From NCBI GenBank assembly GCA_017962275.1, contig JAGCVQ010000073.1, positions 4,543-68,542 of the forward strand: DNA of 64,000 nt, written 5' to 3'. The notes under the pieces were generated by a model, which did no database searches, had not been told where the DNA came from, and was given only the letters and a program-made list of their open reading frames with translations. Within the stretch, counting starts at the first letter, position 1, and each line of letters starts with the position of its first letter. Source of the stretch: Bacteroidales bacterium (GTDB lineage Bacteria; Bacteroidota; Bacteroidia; Bacteroidales; WCHB1-69). The translations under genes and the position numbers were made by a program. Shown one piece after another: positions 1,947 to 15,441 of this stretch.

Positions 1947-3548
1947 ATGGAGATGAAAAGAACATTATGGATTGTTTTCGCCTTGATGATGGGCGTGACA
2001 CTGCAGGCGCAGAGTGTTGCGGATTATGAATCGGACGGCATGGAGTGCACTTCCATCACGGTGGGGAAGAAGGCTTCTGCCGATGGATCGGTGATGACTT
2101 CGCATACGGACGACAGCCATCGTTCGCGCACGAACATTTACGTGACGCCCGAGCAGGACTACGAACCCGGTGCCACGCAGACGCTTTACAAGCGCGAGTG
2201 GGCAAAGAAGCAGCAGCCCGGTCAGATGTTGCGCTATGATAACATTCCCGTGGGTGAAATCCCGCAGGTAGAGCACACCTACCAGTTCCTCAACACCGCT
2301 TATCCCTGCGTGAACGAGGCTCAGTTGGCCATCGGCGAATCGACTTTCGGCGGACGTCCCGAACTGAAGTCCGACAGCGGTCTCATTGATTGCCAGCGGC
2401 TCTGCATGCTGCTGCTGCAACGCTGCTGTACGGCCCGCGAAGCTATCGAAACTGCCGGCGTGCTGCTCAAGAAATACGGCTGGATTGACGCAGGTGAGTG
2501 CCTGACCATCGCCGACAAGGATGAGGTGTGGCATCTGGAGATCCTCGGTCCCGGCAGGGGCAAGTTAGGCGCGGTATGGGCGGCACAGCGCGTGCCCGAC
2601 GATCATGTGGCTGTCAATGCCAACGCCTCCACCATCCGCGAAATCAACCTCAAGGACAAGGATTACTTCATGGCCTCCGACAATGTCTATTCGCTGGCCC
2701 GCGATAACGGCTGGTGGGATGGCAAATCGACCTTCCGCTTCGCATACGCATACGCACCGCAAACCCGTACGTCGATGGCATGCCGCCGTCGCGAGTGGCG
2801 CGTCTTCGATCTCGTCGCCCCCTCCCTCCACCTCGACCCCAACGCCGAAAACTATCCTTTCTCTGTGAAACCCGACACGCTCGTCACCCTCGAAAAGATG
2901 ATGAGCATTTTCAGAGATTTCTATGAAGGCACCCCCTACGACATGCGTAAAACGCTGACCGTCACCGATAAAGACGGCAAGACCGTCATCTCCCCGATGG
3001 CCAATCCGTTCATGAAGCTCGACGAGCTGAAGTTGCACCGCATCAACGGAGGCTGGAATGAGCGCGGTGAACGCAGTATCGCTGTCCATTTTACCGTCTA
3101 TGCCACCATCATTCAATGCCGCAACTGGCTGCCCGATGAGGTCGGTGCCCTTTGCTGGTTTGCCCTCGACAATGTGGCTTCCTCCATCTATGTGCCTATC
3201 TATGCCAACGTTACGGATCTCCCGTCCACCTATAAAACGGATGGGCGCCTCACGGGATTCAGCAGGGAGTCCGCTTGGTGGGGCTTCAACCGTGTGGGCA
3301 CGATCGCCGCACAGCGTTGGGGCGACATGCACGTGACGGTGGATAAGACATGGCAGCCCTTGCAGAAAGAGTTCATCAAGGAACACTATGTCATCGAACA
3401 AGAGGCGATGGAGCTGATCAAGCAAGATCGTTATGAGGAGGCTGTACAGGTGCTCACCAACTTCACCGACATTTGCGGCAACGAGGCTGTGGAACGCGCC
3501 TGGAAGCTCGGCGACGAACTCTGGACAACCTACGACGGCCAATGGTAA
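1947..3548 (+). CDS. C69-family dipeptidase (secreted)
   Basis: Signal peptide MEMKRTLWIVFALMMGVTLQAQ, then the Cys-nucleophile context GMECTSITVGKKASADGSVMTSHTDD typical of C69 dipeptidases. The track start at 1929 is TTG; I moved it to the first ATG, 23 nt after a -7 box. Confidence 0.85.
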   Translation: MEMKRTLWIVFALMMGVTLQAQSVADYESDGMECTSITVGKKASADGSVMTSHTDDSHRSRTNIYVTPEQDYEPGATQTLYKREWAKKQQPGQMLRYDNIPVGEIPQVEHTYQFLNTAYPCVNEAQLAIGESTFGGRPELKSDSGLIDCQRLCMLLLQRCCTAREAIETAGVLLKKYGWIDAGECLTIADKDEVWHLEILGPGRGKLGAVWAAQRVPDDHVAVNANASTIREINLKDKDYFMASDNVYSLARDNGWWDGKSTFRFAYAYAPQTRTSMACRRREWRVFDLVAPSLHLDPNAENYPFSVKPDTLVTLEKMMSIFRDFYEGTPYDMRKTLTVTDKDGKTVISPMANPFMKLDELKLHRINGGWNERGERSIAVHFTVYATIIQCRNWLPDEVGALCWFALDNVASSIYVPIYANVTDLPSTYKTDGRLTGFSRESAWWGFNRVGTIAAQRWGDMHVTVDKTWQPLQKEFIKEHYVIEQEAMELIKQDRYEEAVQVLTNFTDICGNEAVERAWKLGDELWTTYDGQW

Positions 3549-3594: not shown

Positions 3595-4344
3595 ATGACA
3601 GACATCATCCCGATTCTCGAAAAGTCATTCCAAATCCCCTCCTATTTTGTGGATGAGAATGCGGAGCTCACCGTCAGTGCGCTTTTCAGCCTGCTGCAGG
3701 AGATGAGCGACAATCACGCATCCCTTTTGGGCGCAGGATGGCACGAGTTGCGGGTGCGGGGCTACTTTTGGGTCATTACCAAGATTCAGTTGAAAATCAA
3801 CCGGTTGCCGAAGTGGACGGAGCCGGTGCGGTTACGTACTTGGGTGAAGAATTCCAATGCGGCCACCTCTCCCCGCGACTACGAGATGTTGGATGTTGAT
3901 GGAAACCTGCTCGTTGCCGGAAGTTCGGTGTGGGCCATTCTCGACATCGCCAACGGCCGGCCTCAGCGAATGAGCATGTTCGACGGCTGTTTCCTGCCGC
4001 AGGAACGCAACGCCATCGACCGCATACCTCCGAAAATCAGCGCGTTGGATATTCCAAAAGAACCGCGATATTCCAAAGAGGTGGTGGCTTCCGACATCGA
4101 TATTAACCGCCACGTCAACAACGCCCGGTACATCCAATGGGCGTTCGATGCGGTGAAGGAGGAGTTCCGCCATACGCATCGTGTCTCCGGCATGACAGTC
4201 AACTTCCTGTCTCAAGCCAAGTTGGGCGACCACTATGCCGTCCATACCGAAACTGTTTCCGAGTACGAATATAAAACGACTCTTTACTCTTCTGATGATC
4301 GCCAAGAGTATTGCCGTATCCAATCCGAATGGAAGTCTATATGA
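3595..4344 (+). CDS. Acyl-ACP thioesterase
   Basis: 249 aa with a double hotdog-type layout. The FatA/B-like stretches YFVDENAELTVSALFSLLQEMSDNHA and DIDINRHVNNARYIQW are characteristic. Confidence 0.85.
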   Translation: MTDIIPILEKSFQIPSYFVDENAELTVSALFSLLQEMSDNHASLLGAGWHELRVRGYFWVITKIQLKINRLPKWTEPVRLRTWVKNSNAATSPRDYEMLDVDGNLLVAGSSVWAILDIANGRPQRMSMFDGCFLPQERNAIDRIPPKISALDIPKEPRYSKEVVASDIDINRHVNNARYIQWAFDAVKEEFRHTHRVSGMTVNFLSQAKLGDHYAVHTETVSEYEYKTTLYSSDDRQEYCRIQSEWKSI

Positions 4345-9807: not shown

Positions 9808-9834
9808 AAGGCTACACTAATCTGAATGGCGGCG

Positions 9835-9842
9835 CAAAAATA
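9835..9842 (-). promoter_or_regulatory. -7 box TAttTTTG
   Basis: 28 nt before the start at 9807. Confidence 0.5.
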
Positions 9843-9920
9843 CACATTTTCAGCTCTCAACGTGTTATAAAAATGTCTATTTGGTGTTACTATGATTATC
9901 GTTTTATTCAAGAAAAGTTG

Positions 9921-9928
9921 TATTTTTG
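9921..9928 (+). promoter_or_regulatory. -7 box TAttTTTG for the abiEi-abiEii operon
   Basis: 24 nt before the ATG at 9952. Confidence 0.55.
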
Positions 9929-9951
9929 CAGCGTCTTTTGAATAAAATGAT

Positions 9952-10572
9952 ATGACCTATTTGGAATTCAGAGAGCAGTGGCATACGGTGGGGTGTTTCA
10001 ATATCTACCAAATCCGTGCCTGGAAGCCTGATTTCGACAGAAGCAACCTTTTCCGTTGGGTGAAAAAGGGTTATTTGTCTAAGTTGAGGCAAGATTGGTA
10101 TGCTTTCAGCGACCTCAAGGGTAGTCCTGAAACAGCAAGATATGTGGCGCAGCGGATATACACCCCGTCGTATATCAGCCTACACACCGCATTGTCTTTC
10201 TATGGCATTATTCCTGAAGCGGTGACATCCATCATGTGCGTCACTTCCAATCGTCCAGCCACCTACAGCAACGATTTCGGCGAGTTCAGCTATCAAACGG
10301 TGAAGCCCGCCCTGTTCTTCGGTTACAAGCCCATGATCCTGTCGCCGCATGGCAGCTACCTGCTCGCATTTCCCGAAAAGGCCATCCTCGACCTGCTGTA
10401 TCTTTACCCGCAATACAACACAGAGGAAGCATTGATGGAACTCCGTTTGGATGAATGGTGGATGCAGGAAGAGTTGGACCGAGACCGATTGCTGGCGTAT
10501 TCCGAGCAAAGTGCCGTTAAGGCGTTACAATATAGAGTGAATCTACTGTTAAAAACATACAGAAATGATTGA
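9952..10572 (+). CDS. AbiEi-family antitoxin (type IV TA system)
   Basis: 206 aa. The N-terminal winged-helix-like FRWVKKGYLSKLRQDWYAF and then YISLHTALSFYGIIPE are typical of AbiEi. It overlaps the downstream AbiEii gene by 8 nt. Confidence 0.75.
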   Translation: MTYLEFREQWHTVGCFNIYQIRAWKPDFDRSNLFRWVKKGYLSKLRQDWYAFSDLKGSPETARYVAQRIYTPSYISLHTALSFYGIIPEAVTSIMCVTSNRPATYSNDFGEFSYQTVKPALFFGYKPMILSPHGSYLLAFPEKAILDLLYLYPQYNTEEALMELRLDEWWMQEELDRDRLLAYSEQSAVKALQYRVNLLLKTYRND

Positions 10573-11800
10573 TTTATCCTCACTGTTATCATTCTATCCT
10601 CAACAAATAGCGGCGAATGCTGCATTTCACAAGCATGTTCTCAAAGAATATGTGGAGCTTTTGGCATTAGAGCATCTGATGCAGTCCCCTTTTGCGCCAA
10701 AGTTGGTGTTTGTCTGGGGAACGAATCTCCGTCTTGTATATGGAATTGATCGTTTTTCGGAGGATTTGGGCTTCGACTGCAAAGGTTTGACCTCCGAGGA
10801 ATTCATCAGCATGACGGATTCTTTGGCGGAATATCTTCGTCTTCAGGGACTAAAAGTGGAACTTCGGGACAAGGAAAATCCAAAACTAACGGCGTATCGT
10901 CGCAACATCTTTTTCCCAGAACTACTCTTTGAAATGAATCTTACAGGTCATCGCGAGGAACGGTTTCTAATGAAGATTGAGGCACAAGTTCAGGGGGTGG
11001 ACTATATCCCTCAAACGGCTTTGGTCAATCGCTGTGGTTTTTTCTTTTCGGTCACGGTGCCTTCAAAGGAGACCTTGTTGTCCATGAAACTTTCGGCATT
11101 GTTGGCAAGAGCCAAAGGACGTGATTTTTACGACACGATCTTTTTGTGGCAACAAATCGCCCCTGATTTTGATTTTTTGAAACAACGGAATGGCATAGAG
11201 AATGCAGCCGATTTAAGGAAGGCGTTGTTGGACAAGTTGGAGAACACCAGTCTGTCGCAGAAACAGAAAGATTTCGAGCATCTGCTGTTCAATCCAGTCC
11301 GAAGTGCACAAATATTGCATTTCAGGGAGTTTGTGGAGGAAAAGATTAGTGATGACGGATTTCTATATGCAAATGAGATTGAGTTTAATGGCACTAAGGC
11401 ATATTTAAGCGAAGGACTCGCAGAAGTCGAAATAGGTAAGAAATATGGCTATATTGACAAAGATAAGAATTTGATTATCAACGCTGTTTTTGACGATGCA
11501 TATCCATTTGTCAACGGCACAGCACCTGTTGAAATAAAAGGCAAATGGGGATTGATTAACAAAGAGGGAGAATTTGTGATTGAGCCTAAATATGATGACA
11601 TAACATCATTTCATGAAGGATTGGCTGTGGTTGATCTCGATGGAAAAAGTGGGTATATTAACGAACAAGGTGAAATAGTGATACCGATTGTTTACGAGCA
11701 GGCGTCCGTTTTTCGGGATGGAGTTGCCCTTGTCTCTTTAGATGGCAAGAGTTTTTATCATATTGATAATCAGGGAAAAAAGATAAGGAAATGCGAGTGA
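10565..11800 (+). CDS. AbiEii/AbiGii-family nucleotidyltransferase toxin fused to C-terminal WG (KWG-type) repeats
   Basis: Nucleotidyltransferase signature WGTNLRLVYGIDRFSEDLGFDC. The C-terminal ~130 aa carry four tandem repeats of the GKKYGYIDKDKNLII / KGKWGLINKEGEFVI / DGKSGYINEQGEIVI / DGKSFYHIDNQGKKI type. Confidence 0.8.
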   Translation: MIDLSSLLSFYPQQIAANAAFHKHVLKEYVELLALEHLMQSPFAPKLVFVWGTNLRLVYGIDRFSEDLGFDCKGLTSEEFISMTDSLAEYLRLQGLKVELRDKENPKLTAYRRNIFFPELLFEMNLTGHREERFLMKIEAQVQGVDYIPQTALVNRCGFFFSVTVPSKETLLSMKLSALLARAKGRDFYDTIFLWQQIAPDFDFLKQRNGIENAADLRKALLDKLENTSLSQKQKDFEHLLFNPVRSAQILHFREFVEEKISDDGFLYANEIEFNGTKAYLSEGLAEVEIGKKYGYIDKDKNLIINAVFDDAYPFVNGTAPVEIKGKWGLINKEGEFVIEPKYDDITSFHEGLAVVDLDGKSGYINEQGEIVIPIVYEQASVFRDGVALVSLDGKSFYHIDNQGKKIRKCE

Positions 11801-12057
11801 TACTATCTCTTATTCTGATTGTCAACGTCCTCGCCTTCCTCCTCTATGGCATCGACAAGTGGAAGGCGAAGCGGGCGCGGTGGCGGATTCCCGAGAGTGT
11901 GCTGTTGGGGCTGGCGGCGGTCGGGGGCAGCATCGGCGCATGGCTGGGGATGCGCGTGTGGCACCACAAGACCCAGCACAAGAAATTCCGCTACGGTGTG
12001 CCGGCGATTTTGGTGGCGCAAATTGTGTTGCTGGTGTGGATTTTTTGGCCGAGGTGA
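11791..12057 (+). CDS. DUF1294-family small membrane protein
   Basis: 88 aa. LLYGIDKWKAKRARWRIPESVLLGLAAVGGSIGAWLGMRVWHHKTQHKKF matches the DUF1294 pattern. Its ATG overlaps the AbiEii stop by 10 nt. Confidence 0.7.
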   Translation: MRVILSLILIVNVLAFLLYGIDKWKAKRARWRIPESVLLGLAAVGGSIGAWLGMRVWHHKTQHKKFRYGVPAILVAQIVLLVWIFWPR

Positions 12058-12069
12058 TCAAAAAAATCG

Positions 12070-12077
12070 TATCTTTG
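12070..12077 (+). promoter_or_regulatory. -7 box TAtcTTTG for hipBA
   Basis: 32 nt before the ATG at 12109. Confidence 0.5.
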
Positions 12078-12108
12078 CAACTGATAATATTTTGGTTGTT
12101 TTTGCGGT

Positions 12109-12450
12109 ATGTATAAGGAAATAGATAATATGTTATCAGTTCTTGAGGGCTATTTGCTTGAGGATGCCGACCATGTTGGCAAGCAAATTGCGAATGATTT
12201 TCGCCATCGCAGGGTGGAGAAAGGATTGACGCGCGAGGAGGTGGCCGAACGTGCGGGAGTCGCCATGAGCAACGTGGTACGCTTTGAGCAAAAAGGTCTG
12301 ATCTCTCTGAAAAACCTGATAGGATTGGCAACGGCGTTGGGCTACGCCTCTGAAATCAAAGGGCTATTTGCCACGCCAAAATACTCAACCATGGAAGAAC
12401 TGACACAAATTCGCAAGAATTCTGGTAAAACAAAAGCATATAAGAAATGA
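12109..12450 (+). CDS. hipB: XRE-family HTH antitoxin (HipB-like)
   Basis: HTH stretch RRVEKGLTREEVAERAGVAMSNVVRFEQKG. An ATGA overlap joins it to the downstream HipA-like gene. Confidence 0.75.
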   Translation: MYKEIDNMLSVLEGYLLEDADHVGKQIANDFRHRRVEKGLTREEVAERAGVAMSNVVRFEQKGLISLKNLIGLATALGYASEIKGLFATPKYSTMEELTQIRKNSGKTKAYKK

Positions 12451-13571
12451 AAACGGATAAATTAACTGTGAAATATCACGACAGGACTGTCGGAACGTTG
12501 TCTCTTACTCCCGATGATCGTCTGTGCGCCTTTGAATATGACAAATCGTGGTTGTCTGACGGATTTAGCATATCGCCATTGGAACTTCCTTTGAAAACAG
12601 GATTGTTTATTGCCAAACATCAGCCTTTTCATGGAAATTTCGGCATCTTTGAAGACAGCCTCCCCGATGGTTATGGTCGCTATCTGCTTCACAAGGCGTT
12701 GTTGCGCGAAGGTATCAACGACGCAGACCTTTCTGCCCTCGACAGATTGAGTATCGTTGGGGATGGTGGTATGGGGGCGTTAACCTATCATCCTGAAAAA
12801 AAGATAATTAAAGAAGTTGATACAGTTGATTTTGATTTGCTCCAAGAGAAAGCATTGCAGGTGCTGAAGGAGCAACAGGATACTGATGCAGGTTTGCTTC
12901 TTTACAAAAGTGGAAACAGTGGAGGGGCTCGTCCCAAAGCCATTTTCAGTGATAAAGAAGGTCATTGGCTTATAAAGTTCCGTCACTATTACGACCCCGT
13001 TGACATCGGGCAGCAGGAACTCCATTACAATGAGGTGGCCAGACAATGTGGTATCAATGTCCCTGATTGTAAGCTGATTAACGGACGCTATTTTACGACA
13101 CGACGTTTCGATATCGCACCAAGCGGCGAGCGTATCCATACGGCTACGGCAGGTGGCTTGCTTTGTCTGTCGTTGACCATGCCGTATCTCGATTACACAA
13201 ACTTGCTTGCGTTGACTGGTTTTCTCTCTCAAAGCGCTAAAGAAGTGGAAGAGTTGTTTCGACGCATGGTGTTCAACTACTTGACTGACAACAAGGATGA
13301 CCACTGCAAGAACTTCAGTTTTATGGTTACAAAGACTGAGAGTGGACATTATTCCTGGCATCTTGCGCCCGCATACGATTTGACGCTTTGCACGGAGGGT
13401 TATAACGGAGAGCACGCCACTTCCGTCAACGGAACGGGAAATCCCACATTGAAAGATATGATAGCGGTGGGCACGAAAAACAAAATGAGCGAACAGCGTT
13501 GCAAAGAGATATATGAAGAGGTGAAATCGAACTGCGGCGATTTGCTTTTATGTAGAATCAAAGAATCGTAA
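12447..13571 (+). CDS. hipA: HipA-family serine/threonine kinase toxin
   Basis: 374 aa. N-terminal coupling domain (LTVKYHDRTVGTLS...FEDSLPDGYGRYLL) and a C-terminal kinase region (NKDDHCKNFSF...APAYDL). Confidence 0.85.
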   Translation: MKTDKLTVKYHDRTVGTLSLTPDDRLCAFEYDKSWLSDGFSISPLELPLKTGLFIAKHQPFHGNFGIFEDSLPDGYGRYLLHKALLREGINDADLSALDRLSIVGDGGMGALTYHPEKKIIKEVDTVDFDLLQEKALQVLKEQQDTDAGLLLYKSGNSGGARPKAIFSDKEGHWLIKFRHYYDPVDIGQQELHYNEVARQCGINVPDCKLINGRYFTTRRFDIAPSGERIHTATAGGLLCLSLTMPYLDYTNLLALTGFLSQSAKEVEELFRRMVFNYLTDNKDDHCKNFSFMVTKTESGHYSWHLAPAYDLTLCTEGYNGEHATSVNGTGNPTLKDMIAVGTKNKMSEQRCKEIYEEVKSNCGDLLLCRIKES

Positions 13572-15441
13572 TCGTTTCATCATCACTCACCCGCATCTCA
13601 CATCGCCCGCAATCGAACACCAACCGGAAACGGTGCTTGCCGGAAATGAGATACAACGGGTCTTTCGGAGAGTTCGCCTCGGGGGGAAGTTTCTTGCACC
13701 AACCCAACTCGTAACGAAGACAATATTTGCAGGTCATCAACGACTTGCCGGCGTAATCTTCGGTTTTGTCCAAACCGTACTCGATTTCCTTGGCCCCGAA
13801 ATCCTCATACACCTTCCGATGCGCCTCGTTGGTGATGTTCCGCAGATAATCGGCACGCTGGAAGAGAGGTTCGGGATGGTATTGTAACGGCGTGTCTTTG
13901 GGGTGGAAATGCGCGAGACGGGTGGCTGTTAACTGTTCCACCAACTTGGTTTTCAGTTCGTTGATATATCCGGCACGCAAAAAAGCCGTGCATTTGGGAA
14001 TGGTGACGGTGCGTGCCTCGAACGAGGTGCCGCCTAACTTCGACAACGCCGTACGCAATGTCTCCGCCATCTTCTCGGGCTGCTGCGCGGCCGTCAACGC
14101 CACATTGTCCTCCACAATCGCGGTGCATCCGTCCTCATCGGTCATGGTAACCCGAACACGATCAGTGAGCTCTTCGAATAGAATATCCACGGCAATCTTC
14201 CGTTCAGCGGTCTTTCCACTCAAAATCTTCTCGAATTGCTTGTCAATATTTCGGTACAACGCCACTTTGGTGAATTTGGACAGCGGCTTCTGCGGAATGA
14301 TGCGATTGCCTTCCACTCCGTTGACCAAAAAGCCCTCTAATTCGCCCTGCTCGTTGATAAAACACAGACCATCGCCGTTGGATATTGGTTGTTGGCTGTT
14401 AGCTTTCGGCTTTTGGCTATTAGCTATTGGCTGTTGGCTGTTGCCTAATCCCTCAAACCAATACTTCCCGCCACGCTGCCTTAGATACCCGACAAATTGT
14501 CCCATCGCCTTCGGTGTATCGAACGAGGTCATCTTTTCGCGCTGACCTTCAATGAAGTAGGAGGTGAAGTTGCGGTTGAAGGTCTTGTGCAGGTCGGGAG
14601 TAAAGAAGAAACGGGTGGTGCCGCTGCCAACCCGTTGATAATCGGGACGTTCTTCCAATATACGGTCGATGAGCTGACGGTAGTAGGCGGTGACGTTCTT
14701 GACGTAACTCTCGTTTTTCAGCCGGCCCTCGACCTTGAAAGAGCAAATACCCGCGTTCATCATCTCTTCAATGTGATCGGCGCGGCACATATCCTTCAAC
14801 GAGAGCAGGTGCTTGTTCCGGATAAGAGTCTTACCGTCAGCATCTTGCAAGTCGAAGCGGGTTCGGCAGATCTGAGCGCAGGCCCCTCGGTTGCCACTCC
14901 GTCCTGTCATCATCCGGCTGATGTAACACTGGCCGCTGTAGCAGACGCACAATGCGCCATGCACGAACGCTTCCAATTCGATATCGGTCTGTTTATGAAT
15001 CTGTTGTGCAGTCTGTAAATCCATTTCACGGGCCAGTACCGCACGGGTGAAACCTAACTTTTCGAGAAATTGGATGCGTTCCAACGAATGGTTGTGGCAT
15101 TGCGTGCTCGCGTGCAAGGCGATGGGCGGGATATCAAGCGTCAACAGTCCCAGATCCTGAACCAACACGGCATCGACACCGATGTTATAGAGTTCCCAAA
15201 GCAGCTTCCGGGCGGACTCTAACTCGTTGTCGTACAGCAAGGTGTTGACGGTGACATGCACTTTCGAGCCGTAGAGGTGGGCATGTTTCACCAGGGCTTC
15301 GATGTCCTGCAGGGAATTGCCGACCGCCTGACGCGCCCCGAACGCAGGCGCACCCGTATAGACAGCATCCGCGCCGTGGTTGATGGCGGTGATTCCGCAG
15401 GCCAAATCCTTGGCAGGCAACAAAAGCTCGATCTTACTCAT
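13558..15441 (-). CDS. Peptidase U32 family protein (collagenase-like/RlhA-TrhP type) carrying an internal low-complexity insertion
   Basis: IELLLPAKDLACGITAINHGADAVYTGAPAFGARQ and the long conserved body are U32-like. The track start at 15447 is TTG; the first ATG is at 15441. The insert is GNSQQPIANSQKPKANSQQPISNG. Confidence 0.88.
   Translation of the reverse strand: MSKIELLLPAKDLACGITAINHGADAVYTGAPAFGARQAVGNSLQDIEALVKHAHLYGSKVHVTVNTLLYDNELESARKLLWELYNIGVDAVLVQDLGLLTLDIPPIALHASTQCHNHSLERIQFLEKLGFTRAVLAREMDLQTAQQIHKQTDIELEAFVHGALCVCYSGQCYISRMMTGRSGNRGACAQICRTRFDLQDADGKTLIRNKHLLSLKDMCRADHIEEMMNAGICSFKVEGRLKNESYVKNVTAYYRQLIDRILEERPDYQRVGSGTTRFFFTPDLHKTFNRNFTSYFIEGQREKMTSFDTPKAMGQFVGYLRQRGGKYWFEGLGNSQQPIANSQKPKANSQQPISNGDGLCFINEQGELEGFLVNGVEGNRIIPQKPLSKFTKVALYRNIDKQFEKILSGKTAERKIAVDILFEELTDRVRVTMTDEDGCTAIVEDNVALTAAQQPEKMAETLRTALSKLGGTSFEARTVTIPKCTAFLRAGYINELKTKLVEQLTATRLAHFHPKDTPLQYHPEPLFQRADYLRNITNEAHRKVYEDFGAKEIEYGLDKTEDYAGKSLMTCKYCLRYELGWCKKLPPEANSPKDPLYLISGKHRFRLVFDCGRCEMRVSDDETITIL
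14384..14446. repeat. Nine in-frame heptamers inside the U32 peptidase CDS
   Basis: ATTGGTT GTTGGCT GTTAGCT TTCGGCT TTTGGCT ATTAGCT ATTGGCT GTTGGCT GTTGCCT = 63 nt. They encode NSQQPIANSQKPKANSQQPIS on the minus strand. Confidence 0.9.

Follow-up and report, generated by a model that had tools for sequence, protein, structure and literature searches.

How does the toxin of a two-gene abortive-infection (Abi) system come to carry a repeat domain at its C-terminus, and does such a chimera still act as a toxin? The question is raised by an AbiE locus in a 64,000-nucleotide (nt) stretch of the genome of a Bacteroidales bacterium (WCHB1-69; assembly GCA_017962275.1, contig JAGCVQ010000073.1, positions 4,543 to 68,542), here called the window, in which an AbiEi antitoxin gene is followed by an AbiEii nucleotidyltransferase (NTase) gene fused in frame to WG repeats and then by a gene for a small DUF1294 membrane protein. 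AbiE of Lactococcus lactis and Streptococcus agalactiae has been described as a Type IV toxin-antitoxin (TA) and Abi system (Dy et al. 2014, PMC3985639), and a later proposal assigns it to Type VII (bioRxiv 10.64898/2026.01.19.700257). We consider it very probable that the window holds an AbiE cassette, on a 3.7-kb islet with DUF1294 and a HipBA pair, which captured its WG tail, whose toxin has been disarmed and to which DUF1294 is a bystander. The sequences directly show the anatomy and origin of the locus, the selection on its tail and the mutations with their order, while the loss of toxicity is predicted and the role of the tail is proposed. The AbiEii::WG fusion is new, although the AbiE/MenAT family itself is known.

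Anatomy of the locus

The features on which the argument turns are the following (positions counted from the first letter of the window, aa standing for amino acids).

9952-10572, + strand: AbiEi antitoxin/regulator, 206 aa, apparently intact; PADLOC AbiEi, E 9e-72, profile positions 1-198 of 200
10565-11800, + strand: AbiEii::WG toxin gene, 411 aa; TGA stop at 11798-11800
10565-11350, + strand: AbiEii (DUF1814) nucleotidyltransferase core, residues 1-262; PF08843, PADLOC PDLC02313, Foldseek
11351-11800, + strand: WG-repeat tail, captured, residues 263-411; four blades, period 34 aa; PF14903, AlphaFold2 (AF2)
11791-12057, + strand: DUF1294 small membrane protein, 88 aa; PF06961; ATG inside the 3' end of the WG sequence

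The antitoxin gene comes first in the bicistronic pair and overlaps the toxin gene by 8 nt (ATGATTGA), and the toxin open reading frame (ORF) in turn overlaps DUF1294, whose ATG lies at 11791, by 10 nt. Both junctions, like the in-frame fusion of the toxin to WG repeats, had been proposed in a first-pass annotation made from the letters of the window, and its domain assignments hold in profile searches too. Pfam finds AbiEii (PF08843, E 6e-17) over residues 34-262 of the 411-aa protein, WG_beta_rep (PF14903, E 9e-37) in three stretches of it, and DUF1294 (PF06961, E 8e-27) along the full length of the 88-aa protein (profile positions 1-55 of 55); PADLOC scores the toxin gene as AbiEii (E 2e-93) and recognises the AbiEi protein, which has no match in Pfam. 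Its measurements needed adjustment in that the core, placed in the first ~280 aa, is present but ends at residue 262, and the four tandem repeats, given as ~30 aa each, do correspond to four blade units but have a period of 34 aa.

In the AF2 model of the 411-aa protein (mean predicted local distance difference test score, pLDDT, 88), a helical and beta NTase domain comes first, then a low-confidence linker near residues 261-270, and then four beta-blade units over residues 271-409 (pLDDT ~90-97). Foldseek gives MenT4 (6y56) as the top match of the NTase domain, together with JHP933 (4o8s) and TglT (6j7n), and matches the tail to beta-propeller blades of BamB, of PQQ-type proteins and of designed four-blade fragments, two of which make up an eight-blade propeller. 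By hidden Markov model (HMM), AF2 and Foldseek alike, the tail is a PF14903 domain, with tandem ~34-aa repeats bearing (K)(Y/W)G(Y/L)I and folded as beta blades.

Such a combination is rare. Among the best 120 of 3195 AbiEii homologues, to which all homologue statistics below refer, nearly all are ~261 aa long and have no WG repeats, and PF08843 and PF14903 occur together in three 90%-identity clusters only (P0001-P0003, 411 aa, 84-91% identical). A query with the tail alone (best 120 listed) again confined the combination to P0001-P0003. When the whole fusion served as the query, the best 150 representatives were without exception long proteins with many WG repeats, which says nothing on independent fusions. 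No paper on an AbiEii-WG fusion was found in the literature, which bears out the earlier impression that this architecture had not been characterised: the fusion is confined to a few rumen Bacteroidales, has no name in the source databases and is absent from the literature searched.

Origin of the fusion

The donor of the tail can be recognised in the same genus. Residues 263-411 align gap-free, at 64-72% identity, with the C-terminus of 381-386-aa DUF1361-WG proteins (70% to G017:C76; 64% to G013:C43, 386 aa), and intact DUF1361-WG genes for proteins of 384-386 aa are found in same-genus genomes; G013:C43, P0156 and P0158 are examples of such proteins in rumen Bacteroidales. A crude hydropathy and positive-inside analysis predicts a DUF1361 domain of six helices whose two ends both face the cytoplasm, which would make the WG domain natively cytoplasmic. 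At the nucleotide level the window is a mosaic: positions 9901-11351 match the unfused AbiEi-AbiEii pair of G017:C48 (88%), ~11411-11790 match the 3' part of DUF1361-WG genes (74%), and 11822-13573 match DUF1294-HipB-HipA of G017:C48 (87.6%).

The decisive locus is L016, beside which a conspecific contig can be set. In L016 (the context of P0003) the order is DAGK, DUF1361 (222 aa), AbiEi and AbiEii::WG; its positions 510-1150 and 2689-3065 correspond to 829-1469 and 1563-1939 of L010, an intact DUF1361-WG gene, and the AbiE module lies at 1181-2630, exactly between the two DUF1361-WG halves. The conspecific contig, L116 (97-99.7% identical), has DAGK, DUF1361, DUF1294 and EamA, and its copy of the module (99.66% identical) stands elsewhere, with IleRS on one side and DAGK on the other; at the L016 position it is without the module and 372 nt of WG, the last ~25 WG codons being left as a remnant. 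Because the L016 halves flank the module and L116 carries it elsewhere, the fusion arose with the module in the DUF1361-WG linker, which we read as the insertion of an AbiE cassette. The converse, a WG piece inserting into AbiEii (unfused tails also end in '..CE*'), was considered and rejected, given the flanking halves of L016 and the WG remnant kept by L116.

On this reading a mobile 1.45-kb module landed in the DUF1361-WG linker in one rumen Bacteroidales lineage, splitting off the six-helix DUF1361 domain and joining the cytoplasmic four-blade WG domain in frame to AbiEii. The resulting AbiEi-AbiEii::WG chimera then spread, mostly with DUF1294-HipBA, to at least three chromosomal contexts, its WG tail being kept afterwards by purifying selection. 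As the AbiEii core replaces the DUF1361 domain, the fused tail is no longer membrane-tethered.

A relocatable AbiE module

The comparisons above define a module and, at its left end, a leader.

9901-11351, + strand: AbiE module, 1451 bp; promoter/operator, AbiEi, AbiEii codons 1-262
9901-9951, + strand: leader; inverted repeat TTCAAGAAAAG ... CTTTTGAA; TAnnTTTG-type box; conserved in every module copy

Its boundaries are identical whether the window is compared with G017:C48 (88%), L016 (81.5%) or L116. The leader sequence is common to module copies in four different left-flank contexts and is presumed to be an AbiEi-autoregulated promoter/operator. In L116, L117 and L119 the module lies within a 1.6-kb segment that has an exact 23-bp direct repeat on both sides, which looks like an att-like or target-duplication signature of a cassette without its own recombinase. 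To judge from these alignments, the AbiE pair is a discrete, relocatable module. The 23-bp repeat itself (AACCTGCAAAGGTACGAAAAATT) is found at 3224-3246 and 4830-4852 of L116, also in L117 and L119, and as a single copy at 53-75 of L016, the empty site.

On the right, homology stops at toxin codon 262-263 (window 11351; the equivalent point in L013, L016, L116 and L120), and close unfused relatives have unrelated tails of ~1-17 residues, among them ..GVQE*, ..SEMLCE*, ..NKSIMKQIGTFNTYEHN* and ..SEEGKVDTSTGREKW*. The module stops just short of the stop codon, so that translation of the toxin continues into downstream DNA and its tail differs from site to site. AbiEii with a C-terminal tag is still toxic, while an N-terminal tag abolishes toxicity (Dy et al. 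2014, PMC3985639); tolerance of a C-terminal tag fits a toxin that accepts arbitrary C-terminal extensions. Just 3' of the unfused AbiEii of G017:C48 (L013 ~4230-4276) stands TTCAGGAATGATAAGAGGA, which is similar to the last part of the DUF1361 coding sequence (TTCAGAATGATAAGGAAGA), perhaps as the scar of an earlier stay in a DUF1361-WG gene, perhaps by chance.

Selection on the WG tail

A tail acquired in this way need not be of any use, and one may ask whether it is functionless read-through baggage, merely tolerated, in a locus that is decaying as a whole. We think this improbable, though it is the rival that survives best. A module boundary before the stop codon does make tails accidents of position, C-terminal tags are tolerated (PMC3985639), unfused or truncated alleles (P0404, P0400) fall in the same 90% clusters as fused ones, and every allele seen in the window's species is defective. 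The fused genes themselves tell otherwise. The five used in the selection tests (window, L017/RUG312, L014, L015, L016) all have 411 codons, with no indel, frameshift or stop in the 149-codon tail, and the pairwise ratio of non-synonymous to synonymous rates (dN/dS) of the tail is 0.09-0.18 at a dS of 0.5-1.1, in the same range as that of the NTase core (0.05-0.14). Fused tails form a clade of their own, 79-98% identical in nucleotides to one another and 63-71% to free DUF1361-WG genes, which places the accumulation of this divergence after the fusion. Moreover, the tail is modelled as a confidently folded domain, and the intact fused allele P0389, for which the collection indexes 48 blocks, gave an identical protein on each of the 24 contigs, out of many rumen metagenomes, on which it was read; an intact fused allele is common in a sister species. 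With a dN/dS of ~0.1 and no indels, the tail is probably functional and maintained by purifying selection.

A possible role may be sought in the company of such repeats. WG repeats are elsewhere joined to Ser/Thr kinase, TIR, caspase-like peptidase, SLH and zinc-ribbon domains, which would be compatible with binding or sensing; no functional work on WG_beta_rep, DUF1361, DUF1294 or DUF2238 was found in the literature. The suggestion of a sensor-like repeat domain, made at the outset, stands in so far as selection on the tail fits a functional and possibly sensor-like domain; sensing itself would be one of several possible roles. In intact alleles the WG propeller would add a partner-binding, ligand-binding or oligomerising module to a toxin which, by analogy with AbiEii and MenT, would add nucleotides to tRNA 3' ends and be restrained by AbiEi, with Ser65 as phospho-acceptor.

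DUF1294 as a neighbour

The first-pass annotation had gone further and inferred a three-component AbiE variant with a sensor-like repeat domain and a coupled small membrane protein. In such a system the WG domain would sense infection and the translationally coupled DUF1294 protein would serve as co-effector or anchor. We regard this as very unlikely, and the claim did not withstand the survey of relatives. Of the 55 genomes of the genus, 45 have DUF1294 homologues, and a core copy of the gene lies on another contig of G000 itself (G000:C55, 67% identity), beside the one in the islet. DUF1294 also occurs apart from AbiE, as in G005, where the order is PaaK-like, DUF2238, DUF1294, helix-turn-helix (HTH) and HipA with no AbiE; conversely, L015 has DUF2238, not DUF1294, directly after the fused toxin, and homologues of ~75% identity in G011, G015, G009, G018 and G021 lie on contigs without DUF1294. 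It thus neither accompanies every fused toxin nor is confined to their company.

The overlap, which first suggested a third component, is conserved in the window, L014, L017/G060, L123-125, L129 and L131-139, and the window DUF1294 is probably co-translated with the toxin; it is also constrained, with 28 synonymous and 7 non-synonymous codon differences from L017, and four separate arrangements place it next to AbiE. Fusion of WG repeats to kinase, TIR and caspase domains elsewhere would fit a sensor. The overlap is nonetheless a remodelled junction: homology to other DUF1294 genes begins only at 11822, and native N-termini read MNDTPIS.. or MQNISFT.., unlike the MRVILSL.. of the window, which starts from an ATG in the last WG codons. 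In the species of L016 and L116, DUF1294 is the native downstream neighbour of DUF1361-WG and starts 13 nt past its stop. Other loci have AbiEi, AbiEii, DUF2238, DUF1294, HipB, HipA (G017:C48) or unfused AbiEii, DUF1294, HipB, HipA (L120). Since DUF1294 is near-universal in the genus, occurs without AbiE and natively adjoins DUF1361-WG, we take it, on gene neighbourhood, to be a pre-existing neighbour of the interrupted host genes and not a third AbiE component. Its proximity to AbiE is best read as cassettes (AbiE, HipBA, DUF2238) gathering round a resident membrane-gene cluster.

Simple deletion of DUF2238, suggested by L015 and G017:C48, had been taken as the sole route to the overlap; with DUF1294 natively after DUF1361-WG in L016/L116, this was revised and both routes are possible. 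The GC content is ~60% over the DUF1294 segment and ~42% in AbiEii::WG, a step that marks a junction of DNA of different origin. Two long alternative-frame ORFs on the + strand (11859-12116 and 11819-12124) overlap DUF1294 because the segment is GC-rich; they are not genes.

A toxin predicted to be disarmed

In the NTase core of the window copy, three codons depart from the family pattern.

10715-10717, + strand: codon 51, TGG (Trp), replacing the first Gly of motif I (hGG)
10769-10771, + strand: codon 69, GGC (Gly), replacing the second Asp of motif II (RxSxDhD)
10988-10990, + strand: codon 142, GTT (Val), replacing a nearly invariant Asp

The AbiEii signature by which the gene was first recognised is indeed there, but in a mutated form (..WGT...R.SEDLGFD) where all close relatives have GGT...RFSEDLDFD. 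The homologues have I at position 50 (120/120), G at 51 (115/120), D at 69 (117/120) and D at 142 (119/120), so that V50, W51, G69 and V142 are unique to the window, and Trp never occurs at 51 among them. Catalytic motifs I (hG[GS]) and II (RxS/TxDhD) are therefore not intact, reading V-W-G and R-F-S-E-D-L-G where relatives read I-G-G and RFSEDLD; the fused alleles P0001-3, P0389 and L017 have kept both. Motifs III (KLxAxxR) and IV (+DxxD) are present (MKLSALLARAKGRDFYD): K175, R182, R186 and Y189 match invariant or nearly invariant columns of the homologues, and D187 and D190 are invariant in alignment A2.

Mutagenesis in S. agalactiae AbiEii allows these changes to be interpreted. A profile alignment with its structure (9hlo_B) equates R63/S65/D67/D69 with R63/T65/D67/D69 (with the family Asp at 69) as well as the GG pair. 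In that protein the change of the first motif I Gly to Ala, D69A and D69E are each non-toxic, and double mutants of either motif I or motif II no longer bind GTP (PMC3985639); the Type VII proposal has T65 phosphorylated when AbiEi binds (bioRxiv 10.64898/2026.01.19.700257). D142, which stands at the end of strand 136-141 in the AF2 model, is probably the third active-site carboxylate. The window toxin is thus predicted to be disarmed and non-toxic. Its sequence, fold and gene organisation place the pair in the AbiE/MenAT family, of which this copy is best classed as a degenerate member because the catalytic motifs are not intact.

The substitutions are all single-base changes relative to the closest intact allele, L017, and the steps between are preserved. 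They are not assembly noise: exact-sequence look-ups place the window protein on six contigs, and conspecific contigs of 98-99.75% nt identity carry intermediate alleles at this chromosomal site. P0393 (three samples) shows I50V, D142V and P162S alone; P0395 combines D69G, D142V and P162S with Ile at 50; P0397 carries I50V, D69G, D142V and P162S, and its gene is two bases away from that of the window, which has TGG for GGG at codon 51 and one further, synonymous difference. The conspecific L129 likewise has GGG at codon 51 and otherwise differs by one synonymous base. D142V is common to all four conspecific point-mutant alleles. From the intermediates P0393, P0395 and P0397, the order of loss is D142V, then D69G, then G51W. 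Since both amino-acid changes after P0393 hit residues that are essential by mutagenesis, there is a hint of selection for complete detoxification and not drift, although the numbers are tiny.

Other lesions occur alongside. In at least three samples of the same species (L126-L128) a 1162-bp deletion (window 10876-12037) joins AbiEii codon ~104 to the end of DUF1294, so that two-thirds of the toxin are lost along with the tail and DUF1294, while AbiEi, a 128-aa stub and HipBA are left. Alleles with G52E occur in a third context, where AbiEi is truncated. About 10% of the 120 homologue clusters have some motif I or motif II substitution, which implies that toxin loss is recurrent in the AbiEii family. 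That the substitutions retune the protein, making it a functional pseudo-enzyme or one of altered specificity such as a WG-tethered regulator or decoy, is most improbable, for although the ORF is intact, the exact allele stands on six contigs and the later changes fall on catalytic motif residues in a manner resembling selection, same-species deletion alleles lack most of the gene, S. agalactiae AbiEii with the corresponding single substitutions neither binds GTP nor is toxic (PMC3985639), and motif substitutions are scattered over the homologue clusters as expected for recurrent toxin loss.

In the G52E fused-toxin contigs L131-L133, only the last ~55 nt of AbiEi precede the toxin. All three break within ~130 nt upstream of this remnant, which suggests that a repeat or insertion sequence disrupts the antitoxin gene there.

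Points against a captured tail and a disarmed toxin

Some observations sit less easily with a cassette that captured its tail under selection, was disarmed and has DUF1294 as a bystander. No recombinase gene that could have moved the module was found in the islet. AbiE and DUF1294 are adjacent in the window, L120, G017:C48 and L116, which leaves some room for a functional link between them. Finally, gene conversion by free WG genes may account for part of the low dN/dS of the tail, as the window tail contains one tract that differs from the rest.

11453-11677, + strand: divergent recombination tract in the WG tail, codons 297-371; 75.6% nt identity to the other fused copies

Outside these codons the window tail is 99-100% identical to L017, so that recombination is frequent and the estimate of selection should be read with that caveat.

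A bolder combination of ideas would have the WG domain as a working sensor or partner-binding domain in a single-chain sensor-effector Abi toxin, the series D142V-D69G-G51W in one species as the record of positive selection for detoxifying a fused toxin which, after horizontal transfer, was poorly neutralised by AbiEi, and the module as a novel type of cassette that has no recombinase and makes toxin-tail fusions at each landing site; taken jointly, we hold this to be speculative and rather unlikely, if a little less so than a functionless tail.

Comparison with known systems

The window pair shares with AbiE of L. lactis and S. agalactiae the overlapping bicistronic antitoxin-toxin arrangement of AbiEi and AbiEii families, and its relatives share the motifs RxSxDhD, KLxAxxR and +DxxD, with Ser65 aligned to the T65 phospho-acceptor. 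It differs in the 149-aa WG beta-propeller-like C-terminal domain and in that Trp has replaced the motif I Gly, Gly the motif II Asp and Val the Asp at 142; the window toxin is moreover only ~15-17% identical to structurally solved relatives. With MenT1, MenT3 and MenT4 of Mycobacterium tuberculosis (PMC7450476, PMC10435456, PMC11375011) it has in common the DUF1814 fold and, presumably and by analogy, nucleotidylation of tRNA 3' ends neutralised by phosphorylation of the Ser/Thr before DhD; the MenT toxins belong to another phylum and have no repeat-domain fusion. The DUF1361-WG proteins of rumen Bacteroidales, the tail donors, have the same four WG repeats but a six-helix DUF1361 N-terminus where the window protein has the AbiEii core. 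Fusions of WG_beta_rep to Ser/Thr kinase, TIR and caspase-like domains likewise join the repeat family to a signalling or effector domain, whereas in the window the effector is a TA toxin and the fusion was made by insertion of a cassette into a gene.

This locus, with its intermediate still visible, exemplifies how a defence toxin gains a domain in one step, through a TA cassette that has no fixed 3' end. The alleles form a natural experimental set, from the intact fused P0389/L017 to the stepwise disarmed P0393, P0397 and window copies, with which the effect of WG on an AbiEii toxin, and the question whether residue 142 is catalytic, can be addressed; a toxin-linked WG copy with a growth read-out also offers a way to study WG repeats as such. 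There is a caution for annotation as well: HMMs would call the window AbiE a defence system, yet to judge from its motifs it is almost certainly inert.

The accessory islet and HipBA

The fused pair lies on an islet together with a second TA pair.

9847-13586, + strand: accessory islet, ~3.7 kb; AbiEi, AbiEii::WG, DUF1294, HipB-like, HipA-like; between AAA_28 ATPase and U32-peptidase-family genes
12109-12450, + strand: HipB-like HTH gene; Pfam HTH_3
12447-13571, + strand: HipA-like kinase gene; Pfam Couple_hipA, HipA_C

The HipB-like and HipA-like genes overlap by 4 nt, form the second TA pair of the islet and are apparently intact; HipBA is syntenic in G013, G017, G005, L017 and L120. Block 9847-13586 is an accessory islet, absent from empty sites in relatives: its flanks, joined (600 nt each), match contiguously in G021, G066, G005, G060 and G002 of the same genus, and in G021 the positions that correspond to window 9846 and 13587 are only 53 nt apart. 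RUG312/G060 has the five genes as one block, flanked by an AMP-binding (PaaK-like) gene and an unrelated one, and in L131-133 the block is found upstream of a 218-aa gene and EamA. No direct repeats were found flanking the window islet.

In L116 compared with L120, HipBA itself is a 1.6-kb insertion between DUF1294 and EamA. The AAA_28/U32 intergenic site (window 9808-9846 / 13587) may be an insertion hotspot. Elsewhere in the genus it spans ~4.6 kb at G003:C23:35584-40234, ~12 kb at G017:C124:99301-111390 and ~0.7 kb at G009:C133:53074-53789.

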